A stretch of DNA of 64,000 bases, taken from a virus. Its lineage: Duplodnaviria > Caudoviricetes. How positions within the stretch are numbered: the stretch's first letter is position 1; the number at the start of each line of letters is the position of its first letter. A program made the position numbers and the translations under genes. Below the pieces are notes generated by a model. It did no database searches. It worked only from the letters and a program-made list of their open reading frames with translations, and had not been told where the DNA came from. The stretch lies in the IMG/VR virus record IMGVR_UViG_3300037041_001930. One strand, given 5' to 3'. Below, piece by piece: positions 26,264-61,988 of the stretch.

Positions 26264-26324
26264 GTTAATCTTCCTTTGGTGAAGACATGTGAAGGGGACA
26301 TATGCCCCGGTTAATCAGGTAGGT

Positions 26325-26762: not shown

Positions 26763-26766
26763 GGGA

Positions 26767-28302: not shown

Positions 28303-28304
28303 AG

Positions 28305-29705: not shown

Positions 29706-29709
29706 TTTA

Positions 29710-30954: not shown

Positions 30955-30956
30955 GT

Positions 30957-33385: not shown

Positions 33386-33388
33386 GGA

Positions 33389-33592: not shown

Positions 33593-33626
33593 GGTGGATT
33601 CCTTTTCTGGGAAATTGAAGACGGGA

Positions 33627-35879: not shown

Positions 35880-35908
35880 CTGGGGGACTCCTAGCGGTGC
35901 ATCAAAGA

Positions 35909-39177: not shown

Positions 39178-39178
39178 G

Positions 39179-40060: not shown

Positions 40061-40079
40061 GGTGACCTCTAAAGGGTGT

Positions 40080-41096: not shown

Positions 41097-41165
41097 GGTG
41101 GATTCCTACTATGGGTTATGGGATGACAGGATAACAACTGGATCGGAGACACCAAGATGGTGTGT

Positions 41166-46657: not shown

Positions 46658-46659
46658 GG

Positions 46660-47427
46660 TTACCCCGTGATCTCAGTAGCCGGATCACGTTTCTTGAGAG
46701 TTGGAACCATAACAGCCATCGGGGTACTCGCCCCCACGTTGTTGAGGTAGTCGCGCATCGCCTTGGCTTTGGCGCGATACTTATTCTCGTCTTTGTTCTT
46801 GTTATACGCGTTCATGGCCACGATGGTTCCCGCGATACCCAGAGGGATCCCAATGGGGGCCAGGACTTCACCGACACCGGCGGCACCACGCATCCCGAGG
46901 TCCGCGATGAAGCCTGCGGTCTTCGGTAACTCAGCGGTATGACTACCGACTTCCGAGGTACCCAGGTTTTCCACATAGACGTCTTCGGCAACCTTCATGG
47001 CGCGGGAGAGCCCGGCATCCGCGGGGTCGGGTTCACCATTGATCAAGGCCTGGACACGTTTTCTGCTGCGCTCCAGTGAGCTCATCGCTTTGGCTTTTCG
47101 CTTCTTGTCCAGGAAACTATCGAGGGCAGACCAGCCACCAACTGCGGACAGGGTGCCAATGCTGCCTTGCACCGCTGTATCCAGAATGTTGTCGGCTGCT
47201 GTTTTAACTTTGATGCCCTGCTTCTTGAGCTCCTTGGCCTCTTCCTCACTGACATCCACGGGGACCTCAACCGCTGAGCTCTCCCCCGGGGGCAACTTGA
47301 CAGGAGCACGGGTGCCCGACTTATTGGCGATGTCGTAACCCCATCGGGCCAGACGAGCACCAACACCGAGTCCGAGACCGGCGATAGCTGGGAACGCGAC
47401 ATCACTGTAAGTAAGATTGAGTGCCAT
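46660..47427 (-). CDS. Glycine-zipper head protein
   Basis: Three Gly-rich hydrophobic segments, two directly after KTAA and KTAG; KVAE also present. Confidence 0.75.
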   Translation of the reverse strand: MALNLTYSDVAFPAIAGLGLGVGARLARWGYDIANKSGTRAPVKLPPGESSAVEVPVDVSEEEAKELKKQGIKVKTAADNILDTAVQGSIGTLSAVGGWSALDSFLDKKRKAKAMSSLERSRKRVQALINGEPDPADAGLSRAMKVAEDVYVENLGTSEVGSHTAELPKTAGFIADLGMRGAAGVGEVLAPIGIPLGIAGTIVAMNAYNKNKDENKYRAKAKAMRDYLNNVGASTPMAVMVPTLKKRDPATEITG

Positions 47428-47436
47428 GACGGGATC

Positions 47437-47859
47437 CTATTGTTCCGGGGACGCCTGTAGAGGGGCGAATCGGCGCGGGGGTCGAGGTGATCCAGGAAGT
47501 CCGTAATCGAGTGCAGACCATCGCATGAATGCTTTATACTTTCCGGTCTTCTCGGAGAAATCCACCCGATTCTCAGATAACACTGCACGGGCCTCAGCGA
47601 TGTCCTGCCAAACCCTACGATAGGCTTCCAGGTGGTCTGGGTTATCGAGATCGAATACGGCGACCTCAGGAGTATAGAACTCCTGGACTTGTTTGGAGTC
47701 GGGATCCTTGGGATGGATCAGTGGGACTTCCCCAGTGATCGGGACTTCACGTGGTGCCGTGTGGCGTACCACCCGCATGCCCTGAGGCAGGGGTACCCGG
47801 GTGCCCTGGAGGACCTGGTTGGCGTTAATGGTTCCTGGAGGCAGGGGGTTAGAGCTCAT
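47437..47859 (-). CDS. Hypothetical protein
   Basis: 140-aa ORF within the operon, with short spacing on both sides. Confidence 0.7.
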   Translation of the reverse strand: MSSNPLPPGTINANQVLQGTRVPLPQGMRVVRHTAPREVPITGEVPLIHPKDPDSKQVQEFYTPEVAVFDLDNPDHLEAYRRVWQDIAEARAVLSENRVDFSEKTGKYKAFMRWSALDYGLPGSPRPPRRFAPLQASPEQ

Positions 47860-47862
47860 CTC

Positions 47863-48591
47863 TCAGAACCTCATGGATTGTTTGGGGGCCGTGCGCTTGG
47901 CAAGAATAGATGACAAAATCTTATTCGTGCGCTGTGACTTCAACTGATCCGCTTTCTGCTCTAGGAGTCGCTTCTCAACCATGACACGCTCGATGTCTTC
48001 ATCAGTGGCGTCTTCCCCAAAGATATGCCCCATTGTGGTCCCCGCGGTACCATAGAGCCCAGCGGACGCCGAGGTCACACCTTTGATCGGTGCGGTGACC
48101 AGAGTGGGGTCCACGAGAAACGAGGCGGCTTCCTTGACGTGACCAGTCTTACAGAACCCGGGGTGATCGATGAGCCCAGAGGCCCGGGCACCCTCGAGGT
48201 ACCCAAGTCTGACCGCGTTGCGGACGTCCCGCTCAATCGCGAGTTTAATGAGTTCTGCCGGCTTCATTTTTGCTGTCTCCATTCCAGTTTTCATATTGAG
48301 TAGCGTCCCCAACCCAGCCCCAATGGTCTTCATTGTCGACGCCGTGGAATCGCTGACCCCCAGCCACTTCGCCGCGAGGGCACCGATGCCGAGGCCGACG
48401 CCGGCGCCCAGGGCACCCTGGACGACCTGAGTAGGCGTGATCCAGGGTTTGGCTGCCGGCTGCTGAGCTGCGGCACGATCAATGATCTCAATGCTCTTCA
48501 CCTTGTCCCAAAGATTCAAGGATGGGTCAGTGAAGACCCTGTCCTTGGCATCGCTCACCGCGATCATAGCCGCTGCGGATTCCATAGTCAT
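47863..48591 (-). CDS. Glycine-zipper head protein
   Basis: GALGAGVGLGIGALAAKWLG and IGAGLGTLL; KEAA motif; ATGA overlap. Confidence 0.75.
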   Translation of the reverse strand: MTMESAAAMIAVSDAKDRVFTDPSLNLWDKVKSIEIIDRAAAQQPAAKPWITPTQVVQGALGAGVGLGIGALAAKWLGVSDSTASTMKTIGAGLGTLLNMKTGMETAKMKPAELIKLAIERDVRNAVRLGYLEGARASGLIDHPGFCKTGHVKEAASFLVDPTLVTAPIKGVTSASAGLYGTAGTTMGHIFGEDATDEDIERVMVEKRLLEQKADQLKSQRTNKILSSILAKRTAPKQSMRF

Positions 48592-51500
48592 GGTTTCTTA
48601 CCTCCCGCCAAGCCCCAAGAACGCAGTTTTAGATCAGTATTGTTGGCTAAGCCAGTCAGGCTCCATCTGCTCGCCTTTGGTTTACCAATGCGGTTTCCAG
48701 TCAGATATGCCAGCAGGGCCTCAAACTGGTCATCGTTGATGCCTTTGAAATAGGGGTCCGAGGCCTCGACACGAGATTTCAAAAAACTGGGCATGAAGTC
48801 ATGTGCGAGTTCAAGGCTGTTAAAGAATCTGGCGTTATCAGGGGACTTCATCCACTGCTGCCATTTCCCCTCGTCTGCCGAAGCCTGCCGCATGACTTCC
48901 AAGCGCTCCTTGACCACCTTGGCACGATAATCATCCATCTTCTTGGGATCCGCCTTGATCTGTGCGAGAAGATCTGGATCCGTGGGTGGTGGGATCTCAC
49001 CACCTGCGTTGTTCAAGGACTGATATCTCTGGTATGCCCCATAAGCGCCACCACCTAGGACAAGTGCCCCCATGATGGCGCCGGCCTTACCACCCATGAG
49101 CATGAGCACGAGACCCACGGGGATCGCGGCGAGGTCGAGGTTGTACTTTTGCGCCCAGTCCATGCCCTCTTGGGCCTTCGCCTTGGCCTGATCCCATACC
49201 GAGGGGGCCTGAGGAGGCTTCGTGGCATCGGGGCTGGTGGGTGTGGCCTGCGTCGTCGCTGAGACAGTCGTGCTGGTAGCCGTGGTCTGCGGTGCCTGTG
49301 TCGACTTCCGCTTGGCAGCCTGTGATTTCGCCACCGCATCTGACTTTTCCTGCTGGGTCAACGCAGGGGTCCCCGTGTTGCCACCAGTCCCAGGAGGGGG
49401 CTGGGGAGCCGACGGGGGTGTCTTGATCGAGTTTGTGTACGTCTTCCCCATGTCGCCGGCGTCAGGAGTTGCCGGAGGGGGCTGTGACGTGGGCTGTTTC
49501 TGCATCCCCATCATATTCTTCGCCCAGTCTATGGCGCCCTCAGCCAGAGGCCTCATCGGCTTCACGACGTTTTCGAGAGGGGTCCCACCATCAGCGGATT
49601 CCGCGGCGAGCTTGCACCCACGCCCCCACACCTTTGCGAAAGCCTTCTTTGGGTTGCCAATTACAGGCGGAGTATTCGAGACAACAGGTTTCACGGGTTG
49701 GATCTCCGTAGGCTTGACCTTAGCGGGTTCTTGGGGTAGGGGAACCACTGGGGCTTTCGGTGCCTCGACTTTAGTAAGATTTTTCCGGTAAGCCTCGTAA
49801 TCCTTTATGGCCTGTGCTCGGTTTCCACCTGCTCTCTTGTCCCAGTACGCCGAACTCCAGCTCTGCTCAGCGGGATCCCCTGGTGGCGTCTGTGGTGTCG
49901 AGTGACCCCTGAAGCCGCCTGGGAACATGTCACGGTACACCTTGGGGTTCTCGTGCATGTGAGTGATGACATCCTCCCGGGTCACCGGGCGTGCATTAGC
50001 ACCCTCACCAATGCTCTGAGTGGGTTTTCCATCAGCACCCATGATGTATTCAGGTGCGGGTTGAAAGGGGTCAGGGGCTTCGCCTGCTTTGGCCTGGTGC
50101 TGCCGCCAGTACGCATCCATGTTCTTGAATGTCTCCGGGGACTTCGCAGCCCAGAACTCGGGGTGCGCGGTCTGATACCTGGATACCCCGGTGAGGTAGA
50201 GGCCTGGGTTGGTAAGCGGGGAGTCGACTTGGTACCCACGACGGATGGCCTCGGGGCTCACCTGCATGATGCGGCCAGTGGTCTTATTGAAAGTCCACGC
50301 CGGCGCATTGTCGCCCTGGGGATCCCACTTCGAGGAGTCAAACCCATAGGCTTGTTCCTTGAACCCCTTGGGGGCCTCCTGGCCCTCGGCGAGGTCATGT
50401 GAGTTACCCTTGGCATCGACGTAGTACCTGCCCTGCACAGCCGGGGGTTCTACTTTATCAAAGCCATACTTCTCTCCAAGTTCCTGTAACAGTTTATTGG
50501 TTGCCTCTGGGTTTACGAAAGTGTTATCTTTGAATCTCTCAAATCCAGCAGCGCCTCCCAGGGTATGGCCGCCTTGAGACCGGACATCCTGGTTCAGGGC
50601 GTGCAGGGAAGCATTGGCACGTGTAAATGGCGCCAGGACTGCCTTGGCCGTGGTCTCCGGGAGTCTGGACAACTTGGCCTGGAAAATGGACTCAGCGTTG
50701 GGATCCTTGGGGTCGATGTCCAGGCGCTGATACGCCGCGGCTTTCGCGGCCTCCCTGCGGTCCTCGAGTACGATGCGTTGGTTCTTCAGGGAGTCACCCC
50801 CCATGGAATCAAACCCGTATCTGGAGTTCATGGGGTTACCGGGTCCCCCGAATGTCTTCCCGCCCCATGAATACTTGTCACTGGTGCGATCGCTGCCCCG
50901 GTACTCGACGAGGAGATCCCCGAGTCCGTTCTTCTTGAGATCATCTACGATCTCTTGTTTTCTCAGCGCACCTCGCTGGAGCATCTTGGGCTTCATGACA
51001 TCCGTGTAATCCGTGGTCTTCACCCTGGCCTTGGCCATGATCTGCTCAGGTGTGAGCCCCGTGGAATCCGTGATCAGCTTCGTGGTCTCCGGGGCCCCCA
51101 GTGCCTGGATGTCCTGGGGGTCCATTAGGGTGTCCAGGATACCCTGGACCCCGCGGTGGATGGCATGTGGGGAGTTCCGGGAGATATCGAACCGAGGCTT
51201 CTCGCCAAACCCTGCCCCAGTGGAGAAATCGTTAATCTGCTGTGTCGCCGGCGCAATCGCCGTGGAGGCCTGCGATAGCACTGAGGCGAGTTCGTCGTGG
51301 GTCTTCACGGACTCCAGGTTATTGACGATGCCATCAGTCTTGGACTGCCAGTGGGCCTGAGCACGTTGCGCCAACTGGTCCTTGTACGCCGCGGGGAGGT
51401 GCATGTATAACGGACTGGTGTCCAGGGCATCCCGCACCGTTGTCCTCACGCGATCATGAGTCGCCGCAACTGAGGTCCTCGCGATGTCCCTGAGATCACG

Positions 51501-54293
51501 ATCCCCGAGGACATTGAAGAGCCCCCTGAGCTGCCCCGCAGATTTATTCTGTTGTTCCCATGTCGAGGCATCGAGTCCAGGGGGTGCATTACCCCTGGGC
51601 TTCGAGGCCCCCGTGATCCTGGAGATCAAGGAGTCGTAGGGATTCCCGGCGCCTTTACCCAGGGTGTCGATGTCGATGACACCTGTGTTAAACGGCTCGG
51701 CTTCCTGCTTCATGATGTTGAATGCACGGTCCCCAATCGTGCTCGCCAACATCAATCTGAGATCTGGGGGGAGCCCAGCGAACAATGGGCTGTCTTTAAC
51801 AGTCCCATTCGCGAACTCAATGGCCCCCTGCATCAACTTGGCATCCACCAGCATCTTGGCGCCGCGTTTGTACCCGGCACCTAGCATGTTTAACTTGGAT
51901 TCATCACCAAGATTGTTGATATAGTTCTGTTTTCCCTGTCTTACATTAAAGGCTTGGAGAGGGGACAATGCAGTACCCCAGAAACCCATACCATGGCCAC
52001 CGTTTGCGAATGTGTTCTGGGCAACCTGAGCAATCTTCTCGTCTTCGTACCCCGTGGTATCCGTGAGCAGCCCATACGCCCATCTCCCGATATCCAGTGT
52101 GGACGAGACACCCTCCATGATTACGGCGCCAGCTGCAGTGTTCGCACTCAGAGCACGGATTCCCTTGAGGACAGAAGCTAGTCTAACAGCGGAGGATGCC
52201 CCAGCGGCGGCCCCACTACTCGGAGATCCCGTGAGGACTCTAGCAGTGGATTTCATGCGATCGAGAGCACCAGTGTAAGCCTTCCCTGCAGTAGCCGCGG
52301 GGTTCAGCACTGCGCCTGCAACGGACTTCGTGGCATCAATGGGGTGCCTGACGGTTTGATAAACCTTGTTCAGGATTCCCGTGGGGCTGGCCCCTGGGGG
52401 CGCACTGGCCTTCACGGCATCCTGGGTGGCCTTGTCGAGTCCACGCCACCAGAGCTGCTGGGCACCGAAATGTGCGGACATGTCCAGGGTCTGCTGGCCA
52501 ATGTTGAGAGCTGAACTCTTGATCCATTCAGATGTCGGGACATCTACGTTCGTGGGGTTGTTCCACCTGTTATAGATTGCCCCGCCAACGCCGGCTAGGG
52601 TGCCCCATAAAGGCATACCAATAAGGCTACCATTCCTGGACATCAGCGCTGACGCCATTATCCCAGCGTTCTGAGTCACGTTTCCGAAATTATCACGATC
52701 ACGAAGTTCTCGATAGAGATCAGACCCGGGTGGAATCTTTTTGTCCAGGATGGAGTTCACCCTGGCCTGGGCTTCCTGCACAGGTAACCCACGAACCTCG
52801 TGGAGTGCATCCTGCATCGCATTGAAGTGGTTGTGATAATTGATGACATTGGGGTCCCCCCCAACAATCCTAGCCCCCTTCTTATCGATCCGGTTTATGT
52901 TGAGATCAGTCGGCATGAATGGGGCTGCTACAGGAGTGCATGCCCCGAGTCTCGGCAAGAATAGTTCAACTGGTACGTCGAGAAAGTTGGAAAGCGAACT
53001 AGCGACTTCAGCGACGGGGCGTGTCCCCGAACTCACCATGTTATGGTGATCTTTGATTGCGCGTAAGGTGTGGTCAACTTGGAGTTGAGCCCGGATCCCA
53101 GACTCAGATTTTACCCTCTCATAAACTCGAGTCGCGGCTGCAACAGCATTATCCAGGAACTCTGGGTTCTTCTCACTCCACTGCTGGATCTCAGCCGGAG
53201 TCTCCGGGATCCCCATCTTGAGGAACTCAGTGGCCATGGTATGCGCGGGGTTCAGGGGATCCCCAGCCGCAGCCTTCATCCCAGTGGTGACATCGGCGAT
53301 GTAGCCAGCACGCAGCTTGGCCCCGAGATTCCGAGATTCCGGGTGATCTGGGTTATCTACGAACGCAGACAACATACCCTCGGGGTTCAGCCCCTTATTC
53401 GCGGTGTCCACGCGGTACGCCTTCAAGGCGTCGGCAAGATTTGATGGTTTCCCTGTCCTCTCGGATTCAATGATCGCTGCCTGCGCTGACTTCAGGAGCA
53501 TGTAATCATCGGTGTTGGGTTCACCATTCTCTAGGTGTAATAAAACTGGAAGTCCAGTTTTCCTATGAGTGTGGTAGTCCACTGCGGTATCAATGATGTC
53601 TCTGGCAGTCTTGTCCGCAGAAGCACGGTTCCAGATGTCACCAGTGGCACCAGTATCGGCTTTCCAGAATCTAATGATTTTATCAGTGGGTGCCCCAGAC
53701 GCCTTTCCGACTTCCCAGGCCTGGGCAGCAAAGTATCTCTTGGCCATCCAGGCCTTCGCGGCCTCGTCAGGATTCGGCCCATCCAGTTTCGGAGGCGGTG
53801 CCCATCTGGAATCAAACTTGAACTCGCCATCCTTGGCCTGGGCATCACTGGCCAACATGTCGACGTATTGGTCGCGAACCCCAGGTGACAGTGTCTTTGG
53901 TATCGCGGCGAGATCAGGGGTCATCGTGGCGGCACCATCGTTGACCTGCTTGGTGAGCTCCTTCGAGGGAGTCTTGCCGCCTGCGATGGTATCGACGAGA
54001 TCACTGACCCCTGGGATCCTCATGGCTCCAATAGAAGTCAGGGCCGCTCGAGCCTTATCTGGGTAATTCTTGATCCAGATGTAACCCGCGGCGCCAAGAC
54101 CACCGATGGCAGCCAACCAGATCCATGTATCGGACTTTTCTTCATCCTCGTCGTCATCCGGGGTCCGGGAGTTCGCGGCGAGTTTACGTGTCTTACCATG
54201 CCCAAAGAAATTGGGCGTGTTATTGCGGAGTTCATCAATAGGAAAATGAGCGCGTCGATTCTTGACGCGCTTGATCTCCGACTTTGGTTTCAT
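48588..54293 (-). CDS. 1901-aa protein, probable internal-head/ejection protein (tape-measure-like alternative)
   Basis: Follows the portal with an ATGA overlap. KLAA near the N-terminus followed by an acidic run and TM-like WIWLAAIGGLGAAGYIWI; a second KLAA before a Pro/Thr-rich linker and a C-terminal hydrophobic hairpin. Confidence 0.7.
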   Translation of the reverse strand: MKPKSEIKRVKNRRAHFPIDELRNNTPNFFGHGKTRKLAANSRTPDDDEDEEKSDTWIWLAAIGGLGAAGYIWIKNYPDKARAALTSIGAMRIPGVSDLVDTIAGGKTPSKELTKQVNDGAATMTPDLAAIPKTLSPGVRDQYVDMLASDAQAKDGEFKFDSRWAPPPKLDGPNPDEAAKAWMAKRYFAAQAWEVGKASGAPTDKIIRFWKADTGATGDIWNRASADKTARDIIDTAVDYHTHRKTGLPVLLHLENGEPNTDDYMLLKSAQAAIIESERTGKPSNLADALKAYRVDTANKGLNPEGMLSAFVDNPDHPESRNLGAKLRAGYIADVTTGMKAAAGDPLNPAHTMATEFLKMGIPETPAEIQQWSEKNPEFLDNAVAAATRVYERVKSESGIRAQLQVDHTLRAIKDHHNMVSSGTRPVAEVASSLSNFLDVPVELFLPRLGACTPVAAPFMPTDLNINRIDKKGARIVGGDPNVINYHNHFNAMQDALHEVRGLPVQEAQARVNSILDKKIPPGSDLYRELRDRDNFGNVTQNAGIMASALMSRNGSLIGMPLWGTLAGVGGAIYNRWNNPTNVDVPTSEWIKSSALNIGQQTLDMSAHFGAQQLWWRGLDKATQDAVKASAPPGASPTGILNKVYQTVRHPIDATKSVAGAVLNPAATAGKAYTGALDRMKSTARVLTGSPSSGAAAGASSAVRLASVLKGIRALSANTAAGAVIMEGVSSTLDIGRWAYGLLTDTTGYEDEKIAQVAQNTFANGGHGMGFWGTALSPLQAFNVRQGKQNYINNLGDESKLNMLGAGYKRGAKMLVDAKLMQGAIEFANGTVKDSPLFAGLPPDLRLMLASTIGDRAFNIMKQEAEPFNTGVIDIDTLGKGAGNPYDSLISRITGASKPRGNAPPGLDASTWEQQNKSAGQLRGLFNVLGDRDLRDIARTSVAATHDRVRTTVRDALDTSPLYMHLPAAYKDQLAQRAQAHWQSKTDGIVNNLESVKTHDELASVLSQASTAIAPATQQINDFSTGAGFGEKPRFDISRNSPHAIHRGVQGILDTLMDPQDIQALGAPETTKLITDSTGLTPEQIMAKARVKTTDYTDVMKPKMLQRGALRKQEIVDDLKKNGLGDLLVEYRGSDRTSDKYSWGGKTFGGPGNPMNSRYGFDSMGGDSLKNQRIVLEDRREAAKAAAYQRLDIDPKDPNAESIFQAKLSRLPETTAKAVLAPFTRANASLHALNQDVRSQGGHTLGGAAGFERFKDNTFVNPEATNKLLQELGEKYGFDKVEPPAVQGRYYVDAKGNSHDLAEGQEAPKGFKEQAYGFDSSKWDPQGDNAPAWTFNKTTGRIMQVSPEAIRRGYQVDSPLTNPGLYLTGVSRYQTAHPEFWAAKSPETFKNMDAYWRQHQAKAGEAPDPFQPAPEYIMGADGKPTQSIGEGANARPVTREDVITHMHENPKVYRDMFPGGFRGHSTPQTPPGDPAEQSWSSAYWDKRAGGNRAQAIKDYEAYRKNLTKVEAPKAPVVPLPQEPAKVKPTEIQPVKPVVSNTPPVIGNPKKAFAKVWGRGCKLAAESADGGTPLENVVKPMRPLAEGAIDWAKNMMGMQKQPTSQPPPATPDAGDMGKTYTNSIKTPPSAPQPPPGTGGNTGTPALTQQEKSDAVAKSQAAKRKSTQAPQTTATSTTVSATTQATPTSPDATKPPQAPSVWDQAKAKAQEGMDWAQKYNLDLAAIPVGLVLMLMGGKAGAIMGALVLGGGAYGAYQRYQSLNNAGGEIPPPTDPDLLAQIKADPKKMDDYRAKVVKERLEVMRQASADEGKWQQWMKSPDNARFFNSLELAHDFMPSFLKSRVEASDPYFKGINDDQFEALLAYLTGNRIGKPKASRWSLTGLANNTDLKLRSWGLAGGKKP

Positions 54294-56161
54294 TGGGGAG
54301 CTCCGCCACCAGGGGCCTGACCTCCCTGCCCACCCTGGAGAAGCATTTGCTGGCCCTGTGACGAGGCCTGCTGACGTATTTCATCCAGCTTGGCCTTGAC
54401 GAGGCCATGGAGATCTTTGTTGCCTTCGCGAAGCGCCTTGAGCTGCTGCTTGCGGTCGTACTCGGGCATCCCGGCTAATTGACCCGCGATCTGCTCGGCC
54501 TGGGAAGCCATGCCGCCCAGGGTACTCGCATTTGCGCCGCCACCTGCGGGGAGTCCCCCCATAGGAGATCCACCCATGGGCATACCAGGAGGTGGAGGTG
54601 CACCGGCACCGCCTTGCTGCTGGGCCTGCTGTTGCTGCAGCATCGCCGAGGGGCTCTGGGCTCCGGCGAGGGCACTGACAGCTCCCATCTCCTGATCCTT
54701 GACCGCCTTGTCGTCCTGCTCCTTCTGGAGCTCCTGGATAAACTCTTGATGCTTGAAGACTTTCCTGGCCTCGTCGCCGGCGAGGACACCCAGGGGTTCC
54801 AGCGCGGTCTGAGGACTGATCTGATTCGCAGCCATGAGCTGCATGAGAATGTTCTTGCGTTCCTGGTCGTCAGCAATGGTACTCCGCTGAATCCGGACAT
54901 CGGTTTCCTCGAGACCAAAGTTGCGTGCGGCAACTTTAACGATCCATTGCAGGATCGAGGTGTACATCGCGGGCACCGCAGACCACGCGGACTCAAACAG
55001 ACGCAGGGCCATCGGAGCCGCCTGTGCTGTCAGTGTCATCTGGTGGTACTCAAGTGGGACATTGCACTGGTTCAAGGATTCCTGCTGACGGAACTTCAAC
55101 TTGTCCGCGGGGAGGAGATCCTTGCCCTCACCACCCAGGAACTGGTAGTTCACGGGGTACGGTGCGGTGTGGTAAGACATGGGTTCAGCGCGATGTGCAT
55201 TGATGATACGATTCATACCACCAACGAAGTTGTCCATGCCATGCTGGATCATGGGGTCGTTCTGATTCGCCATTGCTGGAGAAATCAAACGGAGGCCCAG
55301 GGTGTAGTCCGATGCAATGGCTTGGTCGGCACGGTTCAGGATCTGCTGCAACCAGAATGTCCGGAAGTTGGAGATCGAGGCGGGGACACCCCAGCCACGA
55401 GTCCGCATCCCCGAGATCACGGGTTCATCGACGTGGTAAATCATGTCCTCGTCGAAGAGGAGACGACCATTAACCGCGACGGCCTCGAGGACCTCGATGG
55501 GAGTGTCATCAATGAAGATGCGGGCCTTCGACATGATGTCTTGACGGAAGTCGTTGGGGATCCTCCACCAAATGTTCTTGCGCTGGGACCAGAAGTTCTG
55601 GGCGAGCTCGATCTCGAAGGGGGAGTACCGGAGGACACGGATCCGGGAGATATCGGGATCCTTGCGATCCCGGAGCACGAAGTCCTGGGTATTCCCACAG
55701 GAAGGGCATGGCTTCTTGCGGAGCCAGCGGACCCCTCGCTGAGAAGTCAGATCAATGGTGTAATCGACATGCTTGATGGGCTGCTCGAAGTAGCAGTGTG
55801 GGCATGACAGGTTACGCTTGAATGGTAAGTATATGGACAGGAAGCAGTTACCATAACATAGGAAATCGGATCCTGCCGCCTTTAGCTCGCGGCTATAGTT
55901 GAGATGCTTCTGGAAGAGATCCTTGAACTCGGACTCCTCATTCTCGGAGAGTGCCGGGAATTGAACATTGGTAATGAAATGTGCGATGACACGCCCGAAA
56001 GCAGAACGATAGTTGCCATCGGTGAGCCAGAGGTACTGGGCCCACCACATGATGAGCTCATGGTTAGTGGGCATCACCGTGGAGGCATAGTCGAGCCAGG
56101 GGACATGGAGTTGACGTACGGCCTGGCCGCGATCCCCACCATTGACATTGAGATTCGCCAT
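54290..56161 (-). CDS. Portal protein with Zn-finger insert and Q/G/P-rich C-terminal tail
   Basis: GSDFLCYGNCFLS, IRVLRYSPFEIE, IYHVDEP..GWGVP, QILNRADQAIA, NVPLEY and coiled-coil segments follow the generic portal layout; CPHC...CPSC insert; first gene of the head module. Confidence 0.75.
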   Translation of the reverse strand: MANLNVNGGDRGQAVRQLHVPWLDYASTVMPTNHELIMWWAQYLWLTDGNYRSAFGRVIAHFITNVQFPALSENEESEFKDLFQKHLNYSRELKAAGSDFLCYGNCFLSIYLPFKRNLSCPHCYFEQPIKHVDYTIDLTSQRGVRWLRKKPCPSCGNTQDFVLRDRKDPDISRIRVLRYSPFEIELAQNFWSQRKNIWWRIPNDFRQDIMSKARIFIDDTPIEVLEAVAVNGRLLFDEDMIYHVDEPVISGMRTRGWGVPASISNFRTFWLQQILNRADQAIASDYTLGLRLISPAMANQNDPMIQHGMDNFVGGMNRIINAHRAEPMSYHTAPYPVNYQFLGGEGKDLLPADKLKFRQQESLNQCNVPLEYHQMTLTAQAAPMALRLFESAWSAVPAMYTSILQWIVKVAARNFGLEETDVRIQRSTIADDQERKNILMQLMAANQISPQTALEPLGVLAGDEARKVFKHQEFIQELQKEQDDKAVKDQEMGAVSALAGAQSPSAMLQQQQAQQQGGAGAPPPPGMPMGGSPMGGLPAGGGANASTLGGMASQAEQIAGQLAGMPEYDRKQQLKALREGNKDLHGLVKAKLDEIRQQASSQGQQMLLQGGQGGQAPGGGAPQ

Positions 56162-56173
56162 GGGGTCAGCGCC

Positions 56174-56371
56174 TTATCGGGGGCTCGGGTGGTAGTCGCG
56201 TAACAGAGTGGCCTGAGCACATGAGCGCTGGATGTCTTCGGCGGCGACTTCATCACTTATCCCGACAACAGCGAAAACACGGGAGTTCATACGAATCGCG
56301 GTTTCGGCCCCGGCGTCTTCAGCGATCGCGGCGAGCACGGGTTCCGTCGAGGCATTAGCGCAGTGTGGCAT
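56174..56371 (-). CDS. Small hypothetical protein
   Basis: 65 aa from ATG 56371; fills the gap before the portal; weak RBS. Confidence 0.45.
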   Translation of the reverse strand: MPHCANASTEPVLAAIAEDAGAETAIRMNSRVFAVVGISDEVAAEDIQRSCAQATLLRDYHPSPR

Positions 56372-56434
56372 AGGAGTTCCCAATCTAGGTAGCAGCGGTG
56401 TCCCAGCGTACCCCGGGGGGCAAATCGGACAAGG

Positions 56435-57316
56435 CTACTGGGCGACGGGAACAATCACGAAGACGAAATACAGCTTGTTGTCCTTCTCAGCTGACCACCC
56501 CCCATAGATGCACTGATACGAGTTCGCATCGATCTGGAGTTGTAGAGGTGCCTTGGCACCCGCGGGGTTGGGTTCGTAGATGGTCTCGGCGTCGGCATCA
56601 TAGATCAGGATGATGATGCTGGGACTCAGGATGATGTCGTCGACCTGGGAGCGCACCTTGCTGCCATCTGCGGGCATGAAGACGACACGGCGGCGTGGGG
56701 GCTTCGGAGGCGGCACGTGAACCGCTGGGGTCACCGGGGCTCCACGGGGCACCCGCTCCGCCATCACAGGGGTCTCCTCGGCAATCTTGACCGTAGGGGT
56801 CACTGCGCGGACTTCACCTGCGTCTCCAACAGTTACCGACTTTGTGGCATTGATGCGACTGCCCCCTGCTGCGGTGCCATCTGAAGCGAACACCTTGGGC
56901 TTGAAACCCTCGGGGTCACTGGGTATCCCAAACTTGTCGACATCGGCATTAGACTGAATCAGGATCGGGCGTTCGGAGAGCCCGAGATCACGGGAGCTCA
57001 TCACGGCACCCTTGCCACGTTTCGCGGGGCCATCACCACGTTGGACCTCGACTGCCCTTGGCTTCATGACCACGGTGGCACCATCGGGGAGACCATCCTG
57101 GTTCGCGGCGAGGAGGACTTCCTGTGCGGTTCCCTGAGGATTCGGGGACTGCAGGGTCACGATGCCATCGGCATCTGCACTCTCGGCCACCGATGGCGTC
57201 GAGGCCTGGCGGCGATCAATGTGCTGGTCGAGATGGTACTCGACACGCTCCAGGGGTTCACGTGTTTTGGGAGTAGGGCTCAGCGAGTCCACGGCTGCGT
57301 CGAATTCACCTGGCAT
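56435..57316 (-). CDS. Hypothetical protein (disordered N-terminus, beta-rich C-terminal domain)
   Basis: Start re-assigned to ATG 57316 with AAGGA RBS. Confidence 0.7.
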   Translation of the reverse strand: MPGEFDAAVDSLSPTPKTREPLERVEYHLDQHIDRRQASTPSVAESADADGIVTLQSPNPQGTAQEVLLAANQDGLPDGATVVMKPRAVEVQRGDGPAKRGKGAVMSSRDLGLSERPILIQSNADVDKFGIPSDPEGFKPKVFASDGTAAGGSRINATKSVTVGDAGEVRAVTPTVKIAEETPVMAERVPRGAPVTPAVHVPPPKPPRRRVVFMPADGSKVRSQVDDIILSPSIIILIYDADAETIYEPNPAGAKAPLQLQIDANSYQCIYGGWSAEKDNKLYFVFVIVPVAQ

Positions 57317-57350
57317 CTTGTATTCCTTGTACGACAAGGCTAGATGGGGT

Positions 57351-58214
57351 TCACTGAGCGTCAAGCCCTGCTATGTAGCCGTCGAGGTCGCTGCCATTGA
57401 TCTCGGTGAGTAAAACACGCTCCCAGAGCACACGGACTCCATTGAGATTCCGCTTGGCTTCTGGGGTGTCACCCTCGAGGTCGGCATAGGGAACGAAGGC
57501 ATCAAGGGTGCCCGGATCAGTCTCCTGTGTCGAGACTATCCAGTTGTGGTTCCCTGCCGTATTGGTGTCGAAAGGATGCAACAGTGTGAAGTCCGCGAAG
57601 AGGAGGCTGCGAGGTGCCACCCCAGCGGCGACGAGATCCTGGAGCATGGTCTTCATGGGGTCAATGTTGGGGCGACCAATGATATTGATCCAGATGTTCC
57701 GAGTAATCGCGGCACAGGCCTTGAAGAAGGCGACCTGATCCCCGGTGATCAGAGACTTGCCATCATAGGCGTCGTGGAGGATAAAATCGTAGGGGTAATT
57801 GTCACGCGGGCTCCCCGCGATGAGGGGGATCATGGCGAGGGCATCAGCGGTGAATACCCGAAGACGGCCGGACTCGATGGCAGCATTGACCTCAGGGAAT
57901 CCTTGCTTGCACAAATGGACTGCCACGGGGTCAATTTCGATGACATCGATGCGGACCCCAGGGAAGTTGGTGAGCACGGCGACGGCACCGGCACCACTGC
58001 CGAGACCAATCATGAGACCTCTCCCCCTTGGGTTCATCGCTGCGGCGGCAAGCCACCCCAGGGTGTACGGGGATGCCGAGACGACACCGGGGCCGCCGTG
58101 CTTAGACGGGGGATCCAGGAACGCGGCACCCTGGACCTGCCCATTGATTCGGAGCTGGCGTGCGCCATTGACGTCGATGACATCGACGACGCCGAACATA
58201 CCCGGGGCCATCAT
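57351..58214 (-). CDS. Spermidine-synthase-like / class I SAM-dependent transferase
   Basis: RQLRINGQVQG, GLMIGLGSGAG, IDVIEIDP, VFTADAL, YDFILHDAYDG. Confidence 0.8.
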   Translation of the reverse strand: MMAPGMFGVVDVIDVNGARQLRINGQVQGAAFLDPPSKHGGPGVVSASPYTLGWLAAAAMNPRGRGLMIGLGSGAGAVAVLTNFPGVRIDVIEIDPVAVHLCKQGFPEVNAAIESGRLRVFTADALAMIPLIAGSPRDNYPYDFILHDAYDGKSLITGDQVAFFKACAAITRNIWINIIGRPNIDPMKTMLQDLVAAGVAPRSLLFADFTLLHPFDTNTAGNHNWIVSTQETDPGTLDAFVPYADLEGDTPEAKRNLNGVRVLWERVLLTEINGSDLDGYIAGLDAQ

Positions 58215-59158
58215 GCCGACTGCAACTCAGGATGGGTATGGTCAGCAGGGGCGTACTTCCGACGTAGTTTAGTGGGTCTGACATCCCCACTGTAGGGGTC
58301 ATCAGATGACCGACGTTTCTTTGTAGACTCCACAGGACGATTAGACATTTTGTATAAGAGATACAATAGTCCAGCAGTGGCTACACCAGCAGTACCCAGG
58401 ACAAGAGGTGATGTCAAAGTTTTAACAGCATCGCCCATGTTTTCGACACCACGTGATGTCCGCTCACCAGTGGCGGCTACATCTTTAGAAAGTTGTTCAA
58501 CATTCTTCGCCGTATTTGCCGTACTTGTCAAGCCTTCAACAACTGGTTTATTTGATTCCTCGATGAGTTTCTTGGAGGCTCCAGCTGCCCCCTCGAAAGC
58601 ATTGGCTGCACTACTAATTGACTTCGCAGATCTAGCGGCTTCCAACCCAAGACCAATTCCAGCTTTAACACCGATATTCTTCATGATTGCGTCAGTTCCA
58701 GCCCTTGATTTCAAGGGGTCAAGAATGGCAAGCGCACGCTGGGGATTCGCAGATGAAATCTCGAGCTGTCCCCCCTTCGTAGTGGGGTGATCAATCCGCA
58801 TCGTAAATGCCCCTGGATTTTTGGGGTCTGGTGACCAGATATTAGATTTAGATAGATCGGGTTGTCCTTTACCTGCTTTTAAGGCATCTTGGAGTTCGCT
58901 GTGTCCAGCGTGTAAGTGGCCCCCACGCATTGCGTGTCGCTGCCCCTTCGTAGTCGCCAGTGCCCCTATCGCAGAGAAAGTTGCGGCTTGCAGTGGATCG
59001 ATGGGTTGTCCACGAATCTTATCAATGGCAATGGGAATGGTGCCACCAGCTACACCTGTGGCCACTGGCCAAATGATGTCACGGAGTGCCGCCGCCGCCT
59101 CCTTTTGCATGGCCACTTTACGAGTGAGATAAAACAACATGATCTGTGCTGGGCTCAT
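58211..59158 (-). CDS. Glycine-zipper/TM protein with N-terminal KVA/KEAA leader
   Basis: MSPAQIMLFYLTRKVAMQKEAAAA; hydrophobic segments incl. LVLGTAGVATAGLLYLLY; AT-richer than neighbours; ATGA overlaps at both ends. Confidence 0.75.
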   Translation of the reverse strand: MSPAQIMLFYLTRKVAMQKEAAAALRDIIWPVATGVAGGTIPIAIDKIRGQPIDPLQAATFSAIGALATTKGQRHAMRGGHLHAGHSELQDALKAGKGQPDLSKSNIWSPDPKNPGAFTMRIDHPTTKGGQLEISSANPQRALAILDPLKSRAGTDAIMKNIGVKAGIGLGLEAARSAKSISSAANAFEGAAGASKKLIEESNKPVVEGLTSTANTAKNVEQLSKDVAATGERTSRGVENMGDAVKTLTSPLVLGTAGVATAGLLYLLYKMSNRPVESTKKRRSSDDPYSGDVRPTKLRRKYAPADHTHPELQSA

Positions 59159-61245
59159 ATCTGGGGCTCCTGTGCAGACGTTTGTAGCGGTGCTTCGGCT
59201 ACTGCCTCTGGGTTCTGGATCTCGGGGGTCTCCGGCTTCACCGCCTTCGACCTCCGAATCGCACGGTGGATCACCCTCGCCCTGGCACGATCAAGATTAC
59301 GGAATGGCTTATTGATGGCTAGACCCATGGACCCGTAGACCTGCTTGAGGACCTGGTCATGGGGGATCCACTCACCGGGGAAATCCGCGGGTGCCTCGCC
59401 TTCACCGAGATGAAAGGCGTAGTCGTAGCCGTGGTACCCAGGCTCCGGCGCCCCTTCATCAGGGATCACGCGGACGTTGGACGAGTAGGGGGCTGGGGCC
59501 CCCTTACCCTCAGTCGGGAAATGAAATCGACGGTTGCTGTCACGTCGAACCAATACTTTACCTTCGGGATCCAAATAGACGTACTCAGTTTTAGGAAGCA
59601 GCGCGGCAGCATCTGCCTGCTTCTTCAGTGGCATCTCGGTGTGCGTGGCCAGGACGTCCTCACCGACCCCGCCTGTGAAAAACTCTTTCTCATCGAAGTA
59701 GGTGACCCCAGCGGTCTCTGCGGCGTCATGATCGTCATCGGTGTTGCCAACCATGCAGATCACGGGATCCAAGGAGAACGCTTCCTCGGCGTATTCGAGC
59801 ATCGCCGGCGAGGGTTTCCTACCCGCATCGTCTTCATCGGTGCAGAACACGATGTCGTCGATCTCAGGCAGGAGCTCAAGGGTCTCGTCATTGAAGTCGA
59901 GGACATCAGCTAGGGTGCTCGTCCCCATGACACTGCGATTCGTGACCCCGATGATGCGGACCCCCGCTGCCTTAAACTTCTTCAGGAGTTCCTTGACCCC
60001 AGGCTGTATCTTCTGAGTAGCATCGATGCCGGCGTCGTCATCCCATTCGGCGACCACGGTGCCATCGAGATCAACGAGGAGCCCAGGCGCCGTCGATGGT
60101 GTCTTGTCCTGGAACTTCTGGGTGCGCATGGATCCCGAGATCTCAGCGGCATGCTTCTCGGCGAGAGTATTGGTGTGCTTGGCCATCGTGAAATCCCCGT
60201 TGGTCGGGGAGTCCCCGCTGCGGAGGACAAGGAGAACCCGGCCATCCGGGAATCTCCGGACTTCATCGAAGTAGTGGCCATGGGCGGCCTCGAGGTCCTG
60301 GAGGGCCTTCACGAAGACCTTGGGGTCCTTGGGCGCATAGATACGGCGAAGACTATTGCGGTACAGTGCCCAGCCGTGGTGCTGACGCGGAACACTGGCC
60401 AGCTTCTTGCCCTTGAGTTCGGGATCCTTCTTCGCCATGCCCCTGGCGGCCTCGACGAGTTCGAGGCGGACCTCGTTGGCCCTCTTGGCCCAGTCGTTCT
60501 TGGCTACGAGTTCTTTGAGACGGGAGATCAGCGTGGCGAAGGGGATCACATCGAAGTCCTCCCGATCCGGGTGTGTGGTCCCCAGCTTGCCGTCATGGAC
60601 TCCAGTGAAGAAGTAGGTTCGTTCACCGTCGAATGCGGAGTCGTCCCAGAAGTCGTTGACCCCCTGGGGCCAAATCGACTCCACGATCTCACGGGTCTCC
60701 GGGGAGATGATCTTGAGATCGGCTTCCTCAATGGCCTCCCGAATCGCGGCGAGCAATGGGGGTTCGCCATCGTCGATGCCACCCCCGGGGAACAGGATGT
60801 AGTCTCCCTTGTCGATGCCGACGACTCCATCCTTGTCGAACGCGACGATCTCGGATCTCGGCCTCAGGAGCTGGCTCGGGGAGCCCTCGTGTTTATCCGG
60901 TGTGGGTTCATTCTCGGCGGCACGCTTGCCCAGCCCTCTGGCGAAGCTGTGATCCCTGCGTTGTCTTGCCAAGGCGGCCTCATCGGGCGCGACATCCTTG
61001 GGCTTCGCCGGCATCATCTTTGTCGCATTGGTCCAGATCTTCGCTGCTGGAGACGGCAGGCTGTGGTCCTCGGATGTCCCCCTGCAGTCACCGCCACTGA
61101 AGAGTTCAAGAAAGGTTTTGCCCTCGACCATGTGGGCATTCGTGGCTTTAACAGGATTCCCACCCGTTGGCGTCGCCACAGGTGTGTTGGTTACGGGGCG
61201 ATCACTGCCCCGGCCTGGAGATGGAATCTTGGTCTCCGCACGCAT
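59155..61245 (-). CDS. Multi-domain protein: Nudix hydrolase, PCD/PhhB-like domain, HAD-IIIA phosphatase, degenerate Nudix-like domain
   Basis: Nudix box GGIDDGEPPLLAAIREAIEEADL; PCD-like GWALYRNSLRRIY...HGHY...VLLVLRSGD..TNGDFTMAK; HAD motifs DLDGT, VTN, RKPSPAML, VGNTDDD; last domain VYLDPEGKVLVRR....FHFP. Confidence 0.85.
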   Translation of the reverse strand: MRAETKIPSPGRGSDRPVTNTPVATPTGGNPVKATNAHMVEGKTFLELFSGGDCRGTSEDHSLPSPAAKIWTNATKMMPAKPKDVAPDEAALARQRRDHSFARGLGKRAAENEPTPDKHEGSPSQLLRPRSEIVAFDKDGVVGIDKGDYILFPGGGIDDGEPPLLAAIREAIEEADLKIISPETREIVESIWPQGVNDFWDDSAFDGERTYFFTGVHDGKLGTTHPDREDFDVIPFATLISRLKELVAKNDWAKRANEVRLELVEAARGMAKKDPELKGKKLASVPRQHHGWALYRNSLRRIYAPKDPKVFVKALQDLEAAHGHYFDEVRRFPDGRVLLVLRSGDSPTNGDFTMAKHTNTLAEKHAAEISGSMRTQKFQDKTPSTAPGLLVDLDGTVVAEWDDDAGIDATQKIQPGVKELLKKFKAAGVRIIGVTNRSVMGTSTLADVLDFNDETLELLPEIDDIVFCTDEDDAGRKPSPAMLEYAEEAFSLDPVICMVGNTDDDHDAAETAGVTYFDEKEFFTGGVGEDVLATHTEMPLKKQADAAALLPKTEYVYLDPEGKVLVRRDSNRRFHFPTEGKGAPAPYSSNVRVIPDEGAPEPGYHGYDYAFHLGEGEAPADFPGEWIPHDQVLKQVYGSMGLAINKPFRNLDRARARVIHRAIRRSKAVKPETPEIQNPEAVAEAPLQTSAQEPQI

Positions 61246-61988
61246 CAGATACCCCCGAGATACCGGATCGCATAGGCGCCGAGACGCCGGAGTTCCACTG
61301 CTGTCTTGGGGAGATTGGGGCCCATGCCATAGCTGGCGCCCGTGGACTGTGTTGGCGGGCTCCCGGGCTGCCCACTCGCCGTGGAGGTCATGGGTTGGGC
61401 TTGGGCGACACCACCGGAACCGATACCAGGAGTGGACCCCTGGGCTCCACTGACCTGACCACCTCCAGCGGGGATGATGGTCTTTGAGCGATGCTGGGGG
61501 TCCACGGCGAGATCGCCGGGACCCTGGTTCTTCTGGATCCCCACGCCACCCGGTGCGGGCATCCTGCTCACATTGGGGGTCGAGGATGCCGTATTGGAGA
61601 CTGACATCGATGTGTTCGGCAGCCTGCCACCAGCCATCGCCTTCTTTTCCAACTTCTCGGATTCCGTATAATACTTTGGATTCTTGGCGAGGTGGTCGAT
61701 GGAGATTTCTTTACGTGCCTCGAGGTTGGGGGTGTGCTCACCCTCTTCCTTGATCCCCTTGATGAGTTCCTTGACACTGAGCTTGCCATGCCTTGGTGTC
61801 TGCCCCCCGAGGATGGCAGCTGCGACCTTGCCAACACCTAACCCCAGGAATGCCGCCTCTTTCTTCCAGTTCTCCGGTTTACGCCCCTGCTTGTTGGCAG
61901 TAGCGTAGAACACACGCTCAGCCTTTTCCTTACTGTAGGTGTCTCGCATGGAATTAAGAACTTTCTTGGCATCCCCGACGATAGGCAT
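61245..61988 (-). CDS. Basic protein with a DUF5661-like domain and a low-complexity tail
   Basis: ELIKGIKEEGEHT..LEARKEISIDHLAKNPKYYT matches my recollection of DUF5661; N-terminal KKVLNSMRDTYSKEKAERVFYATANKQG module; TGATG overlap. Confidence 0.7.
   Translation of the reverse strand: MPIVGDAKKVLNSMRDTYSKEKAERVFYATANKQGRKPENWKKEAAFLGLGVGKVAAAILGGQTPRHGKLSVKELIKGIKEEGEHTPNLEARKEISIDHLAKNPKYYTESEKLEKKAMAGGRLPNTSMSVSNTASSTPNVSRMPAPGGVGIQKNQGPGDLAVDPQHRSKTIIPAGGGQVSGAQGSTPGIGSGGVAQAQPMTSTASGQPGSPPTQSTGASYGMGPNLPKTAVELRRLGAYAIRYLGGI

Follow-up and report, generated by a model that had tools for sequence, protein, structure and literature searches.

A five-module gene beside the portal region of a large uncultured phage, with K-x-A motifs at its module junctions: a possible precursor of head cargo

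The gene, its neighbourhood and its modules

The window (the whole stretch of phage DNA that was analysed, 64,000 nucleotides) carries on its minus strand, at 59155..61245, a gene for a 77-kDa chain of 696 amino acids plus stop, which is the sole long open reading frame at that place and encodes five modules; its product is referred to below as the polyprotein. The start codon overlaps the stop codon of the upstream gene (TGATG), and the stop codon overlaps the start of the downstream gene (ATGA). An apparent second copy of the C-terminal module in an extended frame upstream of the start codon was rejected as spurious (score -1.6), and neither a hidden paralogue nor a frameshift fusion is present. 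The translationally coupled upstream gene (61245..61988, minus strand, 247 amino acids) gave a weak match to DUF5661 (Pfam PF18905, 4.5e-4, below the cutoff), a domain that occurs as an internal module of the polyprotein in the relatives P0016, P0038 and P0065. The portal gene (54290..56161, minus strand; phrog_64 3.1e-4, PF05133 1.4e-3; 27% identical to its counterpart in Salmonella phage Arash) lies 3 kb downstream within one string of overlapping genes, and a relative with 36% identity keeps the order of the polyprotein and portal genes. This large uncultured phage also has a multisubunit RNA polymerase gene adjoining its portal gene. The polyprotein family sits on phage-like contigs of 126-216 kb; DNA and protein searches with the gene against a 50,697-record phage collection gave no homologue among cultured phages. 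Homologues have been labelled histidinol-phosphatase-like or MutT by the JGI annotators.

The N-terminal module (residues 1-106, 60928..61245, minus strand) holds a conserved motif of about 45 amino acids, N-x-P...T-G-G-x-P...S-N...M...R-Y-x-x-G, and P22, T27, G28, G29, P31 and N36 were nearly invariant in an alignment of 14 homologues. This stretch of about 45 residues is present in 54 family members, frequently at an internal position. An Atlas search with the module returned no usable match; it is possibly a targeting or docking peptide.

The second module (residues 110-280, 60406..60918, minus strand) is a Nudix hydrolase, as had been read from the letters alone for the segment after KRAA: Pfam PF00293 is matched above its gathering cutoff (34.7 bits against 21.1; 2.1e-8), and the Nudix box is complete (G155, five residues, E161, seven residues, R169-E170, two residues, E173-E174) and invariant in 26 homologues, with the last Gly of the box replaced by D176. 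The closest solved structure is 1sjy (3e-4).

The third module (residues 284-363, 60157..60396, minus strand) was assigned to the PCD/DCoH fold from an AlphaFold2 model (pLDDT 90.2; last helix formed by residues 349-365) and Foldseek. The best 26 matches in the PDB were all PCD, DCoH or acRAF structures (TM 0.71-0.82, rmsd 1.4-2.7 Å). The middle domain had thus been called PCD-like correctly by the sequence-only reading, for which a fold other than PCD had been named beforehand as evidence to the contrary. Pfam Pterin_4a (PF01329) was not matched in the polyprotein, the homologues P0005 and P0033 reached 23.1 and 25.0 bits under the cutoff of 26, and the top match among PDB profiles was acRAF (4low, E 0.049). 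The catalytic His triad of PCD consists of H-H-P and the histidine of T-H. The module is without two of these three histidines: H324 alone is conserved, an invariant G323 takes the place of the first, and the T-H histidine of the PCD structure 3jst aligns to a residue other than His, so that the motif is indeed partly degenerate. Because the triad is incomplete, the module is regarded as PCD-like in fold and not as a dehydratase.

The fourth module (residues 367-541, 59623..60147, minus strand) is a HAD-IIIA phosphatase (TIGR01662, 47.3 bits against the NCBIfam cutoff of 44.6), in agreement with its earlier description as a GmhB/PNKP-type HAD. The Pfam Hydrolase family was matched at 2.7e-9 and PNK3P at 22.0 bits with a cutoff of 22; the PDB matches include HisB-N (2fpr, 2.9e-6) and GmhB (4pnh, 4.7e-6). 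Motifs I (D392-x-D394-x-T396), II (T435) and III (K477) were invariant in the alignment of 14 homologues. Motif IV reads G500-N501...D505, the GN in place of GD that had been pointed out before; only D505 is invariant, and the first acid, N501 here, is Asn in seven relatives and Asp in others. No particular substrate can be assigned, because the scores against the GmhB, HisB and PGP equivalog models fall far below their cutoffs.

The C-terminal module (residues 545-696, 59158..59613, minus strand), termed here the pseudo-Nudix module, has a Nudix fold from which the catalytic helix and the box are missing, and ends in a basic helix, D-R-A-R-A-R. In its model (pLDDT 93.8) the box helix is absent. 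The best 50 Foldseek matches were all Nudix folds, with RppH first (E 6e-4, TM 0.5-0.58, a moderate similarity), and the best rows of VIA-align were nearly all Nudix as well (Z 8.2 to 5.5, likewise moderate). No Pfam NUDIX match was obtained for this module, and R-E..E-E was absent from 29 aligned sequences; a degenerate Nudix-like domain had been expected at this place, and fold and missing box both conform to it. The MutY C-terminal domain is similar in being a Nudix fold without the box. A complex prediction for the Nudix and pseudo-Nudix modules, which always co-occur, scored 0.00 and carries no weight either way.

K-x-A motifs in the polyprotein, its family and the head-gene block

A K-x-A motif stands at each of the four module junctions. 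The tetrapeptides KRAA (107-110), KLAS (281-284), KHAA (364-367) and KQAD (542-545) were located exactly where the sequence-only reading had placed them. Site 1 (KRA, residues 107-109, 60919..60927, minus strand) is followed by A-E-N-E-P, and relatives show K-x-A-[GAQ]-E-x-x-E-P. Site 2 (KLA, residues 281-283, 60397..60405, minus strand) has its Lys and Ala invariant in two alignments (14 and 26 sequences). Site 3 (KHA, residues 364-366, 60148..60156, minus strand) closes the last PCD helix, and 12 of 14 homologues have K-[TH]-A there. Site 4 (KQA, residues 542-544, 59614..59622, minus strand) is followed by an invariant Asp. Across the 14 homologues (35-96% identity), K281 and A283 as well as K542, A544 and D545 are invariant, and conservation is poor in the residues that separate and surround the sites; in the model of the C-terminal module, K-x-A-D lies in coil of lower confidence.

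The raw number of motifs is unremarkable, since seven were counted in the polyprotein against 4.5 expected from composition, and it is their placement that stands out. The three extra copies (254, 425 and 581) fall within folded domains, and the chance of finding a K-x-A in all four linkers (approximately 64, 14, 27 and 12 residues) was estimated from the composition rate at about 4e-4. Among 113 metagenomic family representatives, K-x-A-D occurs exactly six residues ahead of the C-terminal module in 83 of 89 cases, and a K-x-A is found within 25 residues upstream of the module for PCD in 15 of 16, for Nudix in 72 of 93 and for HAD in 20 of 31 cases, compared with a background of 28%. Family-wide, K-x-A was counted 726 times (425 expected), R-x-A 435 times (498 expected) and K-x-G 176 times (328 expected). 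On this sequence evidence the four junction motifs are not a product of chance, the decisive point being their conservation across homologues.

The same positions are those at which modules are exchanged. In relatives the BLAST matches are interrupted at residues 106-111, 283-284 and 540-542, and DUF5661, a C39 peptidase and a LigD phosphoesterase are swapped in and out at these break points; the family shows 17 architectures. In P0021 and P0029 the Nudix module is joined straight to the C-terminal module through K-Q-A, five residues and K-x-A-D, and the extra Nudix insert of P0005 and P0009 is bounded by K-I-A and K-S-A. In one relative the LigD 3'-phosphoesterase shares its reading frame with a weak match to a ligase. 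Genes for stand-alone modules have leaders of 2-15 amino acids with K-x-A at their end, and in them K-x-A is also followed by short tails.

Extended forms of the motif are strongly enriched in the head-gene block: K.AAE was found 12 times (0.7 expected, z 13), K.A.E 32 times (5.1 expected) and K.A[AGS] 61 times (26 expected), compared with counts of 0, 0 and 1, respectively, in the tail block; plain K.A reaches only z = 4 in the head block. R-x-A and K-x-G/S are not enriched in the head block or in the family counts, and the phiKZ-type [SAG]-x-E is not enriched in the window (179 against 174 expected). N-terminal leaders terminate in K-x-A, and scaffold-like head-block proteins of unrelated sequence contain 7-14 copies of it. 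The likely HK97-fold major capsid protein (24671..25609, minus strand; NF042927 1.7e-6, below the cutoff) has K-A-A at residues 25-27. K-x-A was not enriched in the 25 kb of Arash, the nearest isolate, examined with a crude set of open reading frames; over Arash and four metagenomic loci, with sets that included spurious frames, the enrichment was weak or null except in two close relatives, a result given no weight on account of those frames.

Other definitions of the motif were considered. Of the three-position patterns in the window, K-x-A-x-E is the strongest, and sites 281 and 542 are without the Glu. Cleavage after Glu (phiKZ-like A-x-E) was dropped and K-x-A kept as the motif core, because these two best-conserved junctions never require it. 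L-x-K, the top i,i+2 pair of the head block, was rejected with Leu at -2 in only two of the four sites and unconserved in relatives, as were leaders of the signal peptidase or lipobox type, the motif being neither A-x-A nor L-x-x-C.

A candidate head-maturation protease of 514 amino acids is encoded at 28305..29849 (minus strand; phrog_18299 'head maturation protease', 1.9e-8, residues 146-248). Its neighbours in the language-model search (Atlas) include the S77 and S78 prohead proteases; Pfam, NCBIfam and PDB sequence searches gave no match. The protein itself holds 10 K-x-A, compared with 3.3 expected, and is presumed to be the enzyme that reads the motif.

Proposed role and alternative explanations

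The best explanation, to which a probability of roughly 0.55 is given, is that the gene product is a five-module precursor of head cargo that is cut at or near K-x-A by the head-maturation protease, packaged and injected. The earlier proposal that K-x-A marks processing sites has gained strong comparative support (conservation within variable linkers, shuffling, leaders, head-block enrichment and a candidate protease); cleavage itself, the bond that would be cut, packaging and injection are inferred. The precursor would be taken into the prohead, where the candidate protease (28305..29849) would cut at or beside K-x-A; the freed modules would remain inside the capsid until they pass into the cell along with the DNA. 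That the lineage packs enzymes follows from the distant isolate Arash, in which homologous RNA polymerase subunits were the most abundant virion proteins found (PMC10585845). In the cell, the substrate of the Nudix module may be an NDP-X compound, or else a 5' nucleotide cap or triphosphate; the HAD module may strip a terminal phosphate from the Nudix product or from a nucleic-acid 3' end. The substrates proposed earlier (ppGpp, ADPR, Ap4A, RNA caps, 3'-phosphate ends) are guesses; the LigD 3'-phosphoesterase of one relative slightly favours nucleic-acid end processing.

A wider reading is advanced tentatively, at somewhat under even odds: a new head-protease code, K-x-A, would serve a clade of uncultured giant phages to build cassette polyproteins from a constant frame (N-terminal docking peptide, Nudix, pseudo-Nudix) and interchangeable cargo. 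The cargo, with cleavage sites flanking every module, would then comprise the HAD phosphatase, the PCD-like module, the C39 peptidase, DUF5661, and the LigD 3'-phosphoesterase accompanied by a probable ligase.

An uncleaved 'polyvalent' multidomain enzyme, packaged or not, in which K-x-A would be a conserved linker element (a hinge, domain-capping residues, or a peptide for docking or capsid targeting), is unlikely, at about one chance in four. It would have a precedent in the N4 virion RNA polymerase, a polyvalent protein packaged unprocessed according to the searched text of PMC5512222, and it would suit an offset of K-x-A-D so fixed that the motif could be a structural or binding element of the C-terminal module, the termination of the last PCD helix by K-H-A in the model, and stand-alone genes that retain K-x-A with almost nothing to remove, such as a leader of two amino acids. 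Against it, the occurrence of K-x-A in leaders and in unrelated scaffold-like proteins fits a shared protease code better than a structural element specific to one domain, and both the poor conservation around the sites and the low-confidence coil at the C-terminal motif speak against it.

A cytoplasmic enzyme that is never packaged (for nucleotide-pool cleaning, NAD or ADP-ribose turnover, or sugar-nucleotide breakdown) and stands among head genes by chance is improbable. Nudix and HAD-IIIA proteins are ordinary metabolic enzymes, and the JGI names of the homologues are of that kind; however, the place upstream of the portal gene in the overlapping late-gene string is conserved, the polyprotein carries a motif specific to the head block in a family found on phage-like contigs, and two catalytically dead modules (PCD-like and pseudo-Nudix) would be odd in a plain metabolic fusion. 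That the junction motifs are a functionless by-product of helical linkers rich in Lys and Ala, as the modest count in the polyprotein and the z of 4 for plain K.A might suggest, is on sequence grounds effectively refuted by the invariant columns at 35% identity, the offset fixed in 83 of 89 representatives, the lack of enrichment of R-x-A and K-x-G/S, and the excess of K.AAE.

Provided that cutting takes place at these sites, the sequence would give a readable rule for the cargo that one phage lineage packs into its capsid and delivers on infection, namely modules of head-gene proteins bounded by K-x-A; repertoires of injected effectors would become predictable straight from metagenomes, a simple route for loading foreign enzymes into phage heads would be at hand, and the prohead-protease family would gain a new specificity. 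Should the cassette reading be true, insertion of a module between two sites would suffice to load and release a new enzyme. The constant tie of Nudix and phosphatase to the pseudo-Nudix module points to an uncharacterised activity early in infection, where the two may act on nucleotide-derived signals or RNA/DNA ends beside the virion RNA polymerase. With the PCD-like and pseudo-Nudix modules, two enzyme folds are reused without their catalytic residues.

Comparison with known systems

In phage T4, the head cargo consists of internal proteins and Alt with capsid-targeting leaders, and gp21 cuts at L/I-x-E; the leaders of stand-alone modules that end in K-x-A resemble these capsid-targeting leaders. 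The proteases gp175 of phiKZ and gp245 of SPN3US cut at S/A/G-x-E, and heads of the phiKZ/SPN3US type pack and eject enzymes, RNA polymerase included (PMC10052503, PMC5694885). As in the T4 and phiKZ systems, the motif is shared by capsid, scaffold and cargo, leaders end in it, and the head module includes the protease gene. Unlike in those systems, the core is K-x-A and not x-x-E, and in place of the usual loss of one propeptide, four sites would free five modules, which are swapped between phages as cassettes.

Polyvalent proteins (Iyer, Burroughs, Anand, de Souza, Aravind 2017) are predicted, in the searched text of PMC5512222, to accompany the DNA on delivery and to be processed into functional units. 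The polyprotein resembles them, as far as that text describes them, in combining unrelated domains in one chain, in its variable architectures and in its place among virion genes. Their hallmarks, in the same text, are the MPTase peptidase, ART and other domains, with self-processing by an embedded peptidase; Pfam searches gave none of these hallmark domains in the polyprotein, some relatives carry a C39 peptidase, and processing here would, unlike theirs, take place in trans through a head protease at a linear motif. The frame of N-terminal peptide, Nudix and pseudo-Nudix is not described in the searched text of PMC5512222.

Phage Nudix proteins (T4 NudE-like) have been predicted to be packaged in virions and to act early on molecules derived from NAD or ADP-ribose or on RNA caps (Iyer et al. 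2022, PMC9503650). As here, their genes accompany those for terminase, portal or head proteins in large myovirus-like phages. They are described as mostly stand-alone or fused to MuF, portal or protease; the polyprotein Nudix, by contrast, is tied to pseudo-Nudix, PCD-fold and HAD-IIIA modules. A literature search found no papers that link Nudix with ejection proteins.

The PCD-fold module is close to acRAF (4low), a pterin-dehydratase-like RuBisCO assembly factor, with a TM of 0.72 and the same Gly in place of the first His; it differs in having no carboxysome context, and the sequence match is weak. A role as chaperone or oligomerisation unit is only an analogy.

In the polyproteins of eukaryotic viruses (pp220 and pp62 of ASFV; picornavirus-like RNA viruses), the units are freed by a viral protease at a short repeated motif. 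Virus realm and protease are different here, and only accessory enzymes would be released, not core replication or structural proteins. If the cassette reading holds, the system would be the phage counterpart of that polyprotein strategy, put to use for injected effectors.

The polyprotein gene and its surroundings

The stretch 59155..61245, in which the sequence-only reading had placed a multi-enzyme gene, is occupied by a single open reading frame on the minus strand encoding the polyprotein (P0001, 696 aa). Start and stop codons overlap on both sides, the ATG with the preceding gene's stop codon (TGATG) and the stop codon with the next gene's ATG (ATGA), so the gene belongs to a translationally coupled string; the upstream coupled gene gave a weak match to DUF5661. 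In a 36%-identical relative the gene likewise precedes a portal-sized gene and the fused polymerase.

The window is phage DNA, and its minus strand holds all long open reading frames. The following genes were located on that strand: the portal (54290..56161), a 1515-aa RNA polymerase subunit of the fused beta/beta′-N type (42110..46657; Rpb2_6, Rpb1_1, Rpb1_2), a 1016-aa beta′-C subunit (35909..38959; Rpb1_5) into which a LAGLIDADG homing-endonuclease or intein-like element is inserted, a likely capsid protein of HK97 fold (24671..25609) and a head-maturation protease candidate (28305..29849). Collagen-like fibre genes occupy the low-coordinate end. The multisubunit polymerase is unusually split, with beta and N-terminal beta′ in one chain and beta′-C in another. 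The tail/fibre block (1..24214, minus strand) has a strong collagen-like periodicity (P-x-G 220 vs 90 expected, G-x-Q 102 vs 43). A 1901-aa protein encoded directly after the portal (48588..54293, minus strand) found no match in Pfam or PHROG and carries 12 K-x-A, one of them at residue 37 behind a short leader. Two genes downstream of the polyprotein, a 287-aa protein (57351..58214, minus strand) contains no K-x-A; its weak spermine/spermidine-synthase-like match (SAM methyltransferase fold, E 1.6e-4) lies under the cutoff.

The five modules

The Nudix assignment of residues 110-280 was borne out by Pfam (34.7 bits); the catalytic box is complete, and its residues are invariant. Alignments of this module with solved Nudix enzymes barely extend beyond the box, and therefore no substrate can be read from them.

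The middle domain (residues 284-363), which had been proposed to resemble pterin-4a-carbinolamine dehydratase (PCD), was modelled with AlphaFold2 (pLDDT 90.2), and the best 26 structure matches are all PCD, DCoH or acRAF proteins (TM 0.71-0.82, rmsd 1.4-2.7 Å). A fold other than PCD, named beforehand as counting against the proposal, was not found. Two homologues of the module score slightly below the cutoff of Pfam Pterin_4a. As had been noticed, the His motif is degenerate: one of the three catalytic histidines is left, and the first is replaced by an invariant glycine. The best profile match is acRAF, a non-enzymatic, pterin-dehydratase-like RuBisCO assembly factor that also has glycine in place of the first histidine.

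Residues 367-541 pass the HAD-IIIA model (47.3 bits, cutoff 44.6), in agreement with the HAD assignment; the closest solved structures are HisB-N and GmhB, and the PNK3P score lies at its cutoff. Motifs I-III are invariant, and motif IV has the degenerate form G-N..D that had been pointed out. For the C-terminal domain (residues 545-696), described earlier as Nudix-like, the model (pLDDT 93.8) retrieved Nudix folds in all of the best 50 Foldseek matches, with RppH first and Dcp2 and the MutY C-terminal domain also among them; a second, independent aligner returned top rows that are nearly all Nudix (Z up to 8.2). The Nudix box is absent from this module in the alignment of homologues, and the module is therefore termed a pseudo-Nudix.

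Beyond the four units of the sequence-only reading, a fifth was detected: a conserved N-terminal peptide module of about 45 aa (aa ~16-60; 61066..61200, minus strand) with the pattern N-x-P, T-G-G-x-P, S-N, M, R-Y/F-x-x-G. It matched no known family and accompanies the Nudix and pseudo-Nudix modules; it occurs in 54 relatives, often internally and in some cases hundreds of residues away from the N-terminus. It may serve in targeting or docking.

K-x-A sites at the module boundaries

The four K-x-A tetrapeptides of the sequence-only reading were found in place, with KRAA at residues 107-110, KLAS at 281-284, KHAA at 364-367 and KQAD at 542-545. The polyprotein contains 7 K-x-A against 4.5 expected, a count that says little by itself and would fit the reading of the pattern as chance. 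That reading is very improbable: judged from sequence, the junction placement is not chance, because the sites are conserved, hold a fixed position family-wide and coincide with module boundaries. Amid varying linkers, K281/A283 and K542/A544/D545 are the same in each of 14 homologues (35-96% identity); 12 of these have K-[TH]-A at site 364, and site 107 reads K-x-A-[AGQ]-E..E-P through a small misalignment.

The family comprises 88 clusters at E <= 1e-30, all metagenomic, on contigs reaching 216 kb. Two near-identical contigs are IMG/VR UViG 3300032236_001859 and 3300045131_002121. One HMM was built per module, 164 collected family proteins were scanned, and positions were counted over the 113 proteins with a family-specific module. 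For the C-terminal module, 83 of 89 cases have K-x-A-D exactly 6 residues upstream; a K-x-A is found no more than 25 residues ahead of the PCD module in 15/16, of the Nudix in 72/93 and of the HAD in 20/31 (random-position background 28%). In the 113 proteins 726 K-x-A were observed vs 425 expected, with no enrichment of R-x-A (435 vs 498) or K-x-G (176 vs 328).

BLAST alignments between the polyprotein and its relatives stop or restart at residues 106-111, 283-284 and 540-542. In two relatives (P0021, P0029) the Nudix directly abuts the C-terminal module and both K-x-A copies are retained, five residues apart; in two others (P0005, P0009) an additional Nudix insert is bounded by K-I-A and K-S-A. 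The most frequent architecture consists of the N-terminal peptide, the Nudix and the pseudo-Nudix, to which relatives add PCD plus HAD, HAD alone, DUF5661, a C39 peptidase or a LigD 3′-phosphoesterase. Within the Nudix/pseudo-Nudix frame, P0047 and P0032 carry C39-type peptidases as cargo, and P0038 carries a LigD 3′-phosphoesterase (58 bits) with a weak ATP-dependent ligase match. Modules also occur as stand-alone genes, in which K-x-A closes a leader of 2-15 residues and precedes a short tail. In the metagenomic locus L005:8735-12922 and in P0033 (1359 aa) the polyprotein is extended to about 1400 aa by 350-600 residues that matched no Pfam family.

Across the window, motif counts were compared with expectations from shuffles. 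The head-gene block (24671..61988) has K.AAE 12 times vs 0.7 (z 13), K.A.E 32 vs 5.1 and K.A[AGS] 61 vs 26; the tail/fibre block contains 0, 0 and 1, respectively. The window shows no enrichment of the phiKZ-type [SAG]-x-E. K-x-A terminates several short N-terminal leaders, and scaffold-like proteins and the protease candidate carry 7-14 copies each. The scaffold/internal-protein-like frames 26325..28302, 30957..32456 and 33627..35879 (minus strand) have 7-14 each, 2-3 times the expectation; one of them weakly matches a phiKZ internal head protein (PF12699, E 0.0039).

Proposed processing and comparison with known systems

The polyprotein is best read as head cargo (probability about 0.55): the head protease, cutting at K-x-A or next to it, would release five pieces of about 12, 19, 9, 19 and 17 kDa that would be delivered together with the phage DNA. 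Cleavage, packaging and injection are the steps that we infer; the sequence does not fix the scissile bond. The main rival, a possible but doubtful one, is that the chain stays uncleaved as a polyvalent enzyme and that K-x-A serves for linking or docking. Less likely again is an enzyme that acts purely in the cytoplasm.

As for the function of the cargo pieces, the Nudix followed by the capless HAD-IIIA phosphatase could fully dismantle an NDP-X compound, for example ADP-ribose. Alternatively, the Nudix could take off a 5′ pyrophosphate or cap, and the PNKP-type HAD a 3′-phosphate, from nucleic-acid ends. End processing is slightly favoured because of the LigD phosphoesterase and weak ligase match in P0038 and the RppH/MutY-like pseudo-Nudix.

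The closest isolates are Salmonella phage Arash and Vibrio phages D69, D148 and D181, with portal and polymerase only 26-30% identical. In the published Arash virion proteome the homologous polymerase subunits have the highest numbers of spectra (PMC10585845). DNA and protein searches of the phage collection found no homologue of the polyprotein in these four phages. The T4 gp21 sites are distributed like K-x-A, at leader ends and in scaffold-like proteins and the protease. The same distribution resembles that of the phiKZ gp175 sites (PMC10052503, PMC5694885). Already known are packaged, protease-processed head proteins of T4, phiKZ and SPN3US, 'polyvalent proteins' (PMC5512222) and predicted virion Nudix proteins (PMC9503650). 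New, and found in no published description in the literature search, are the K-x-A code, the chain of five modules with a site at each joint, the cassette-like exchange of modules at these sites, the constant Nudix/pseudo-Nudix pairing and the PCD-fold module within a phage head gene.
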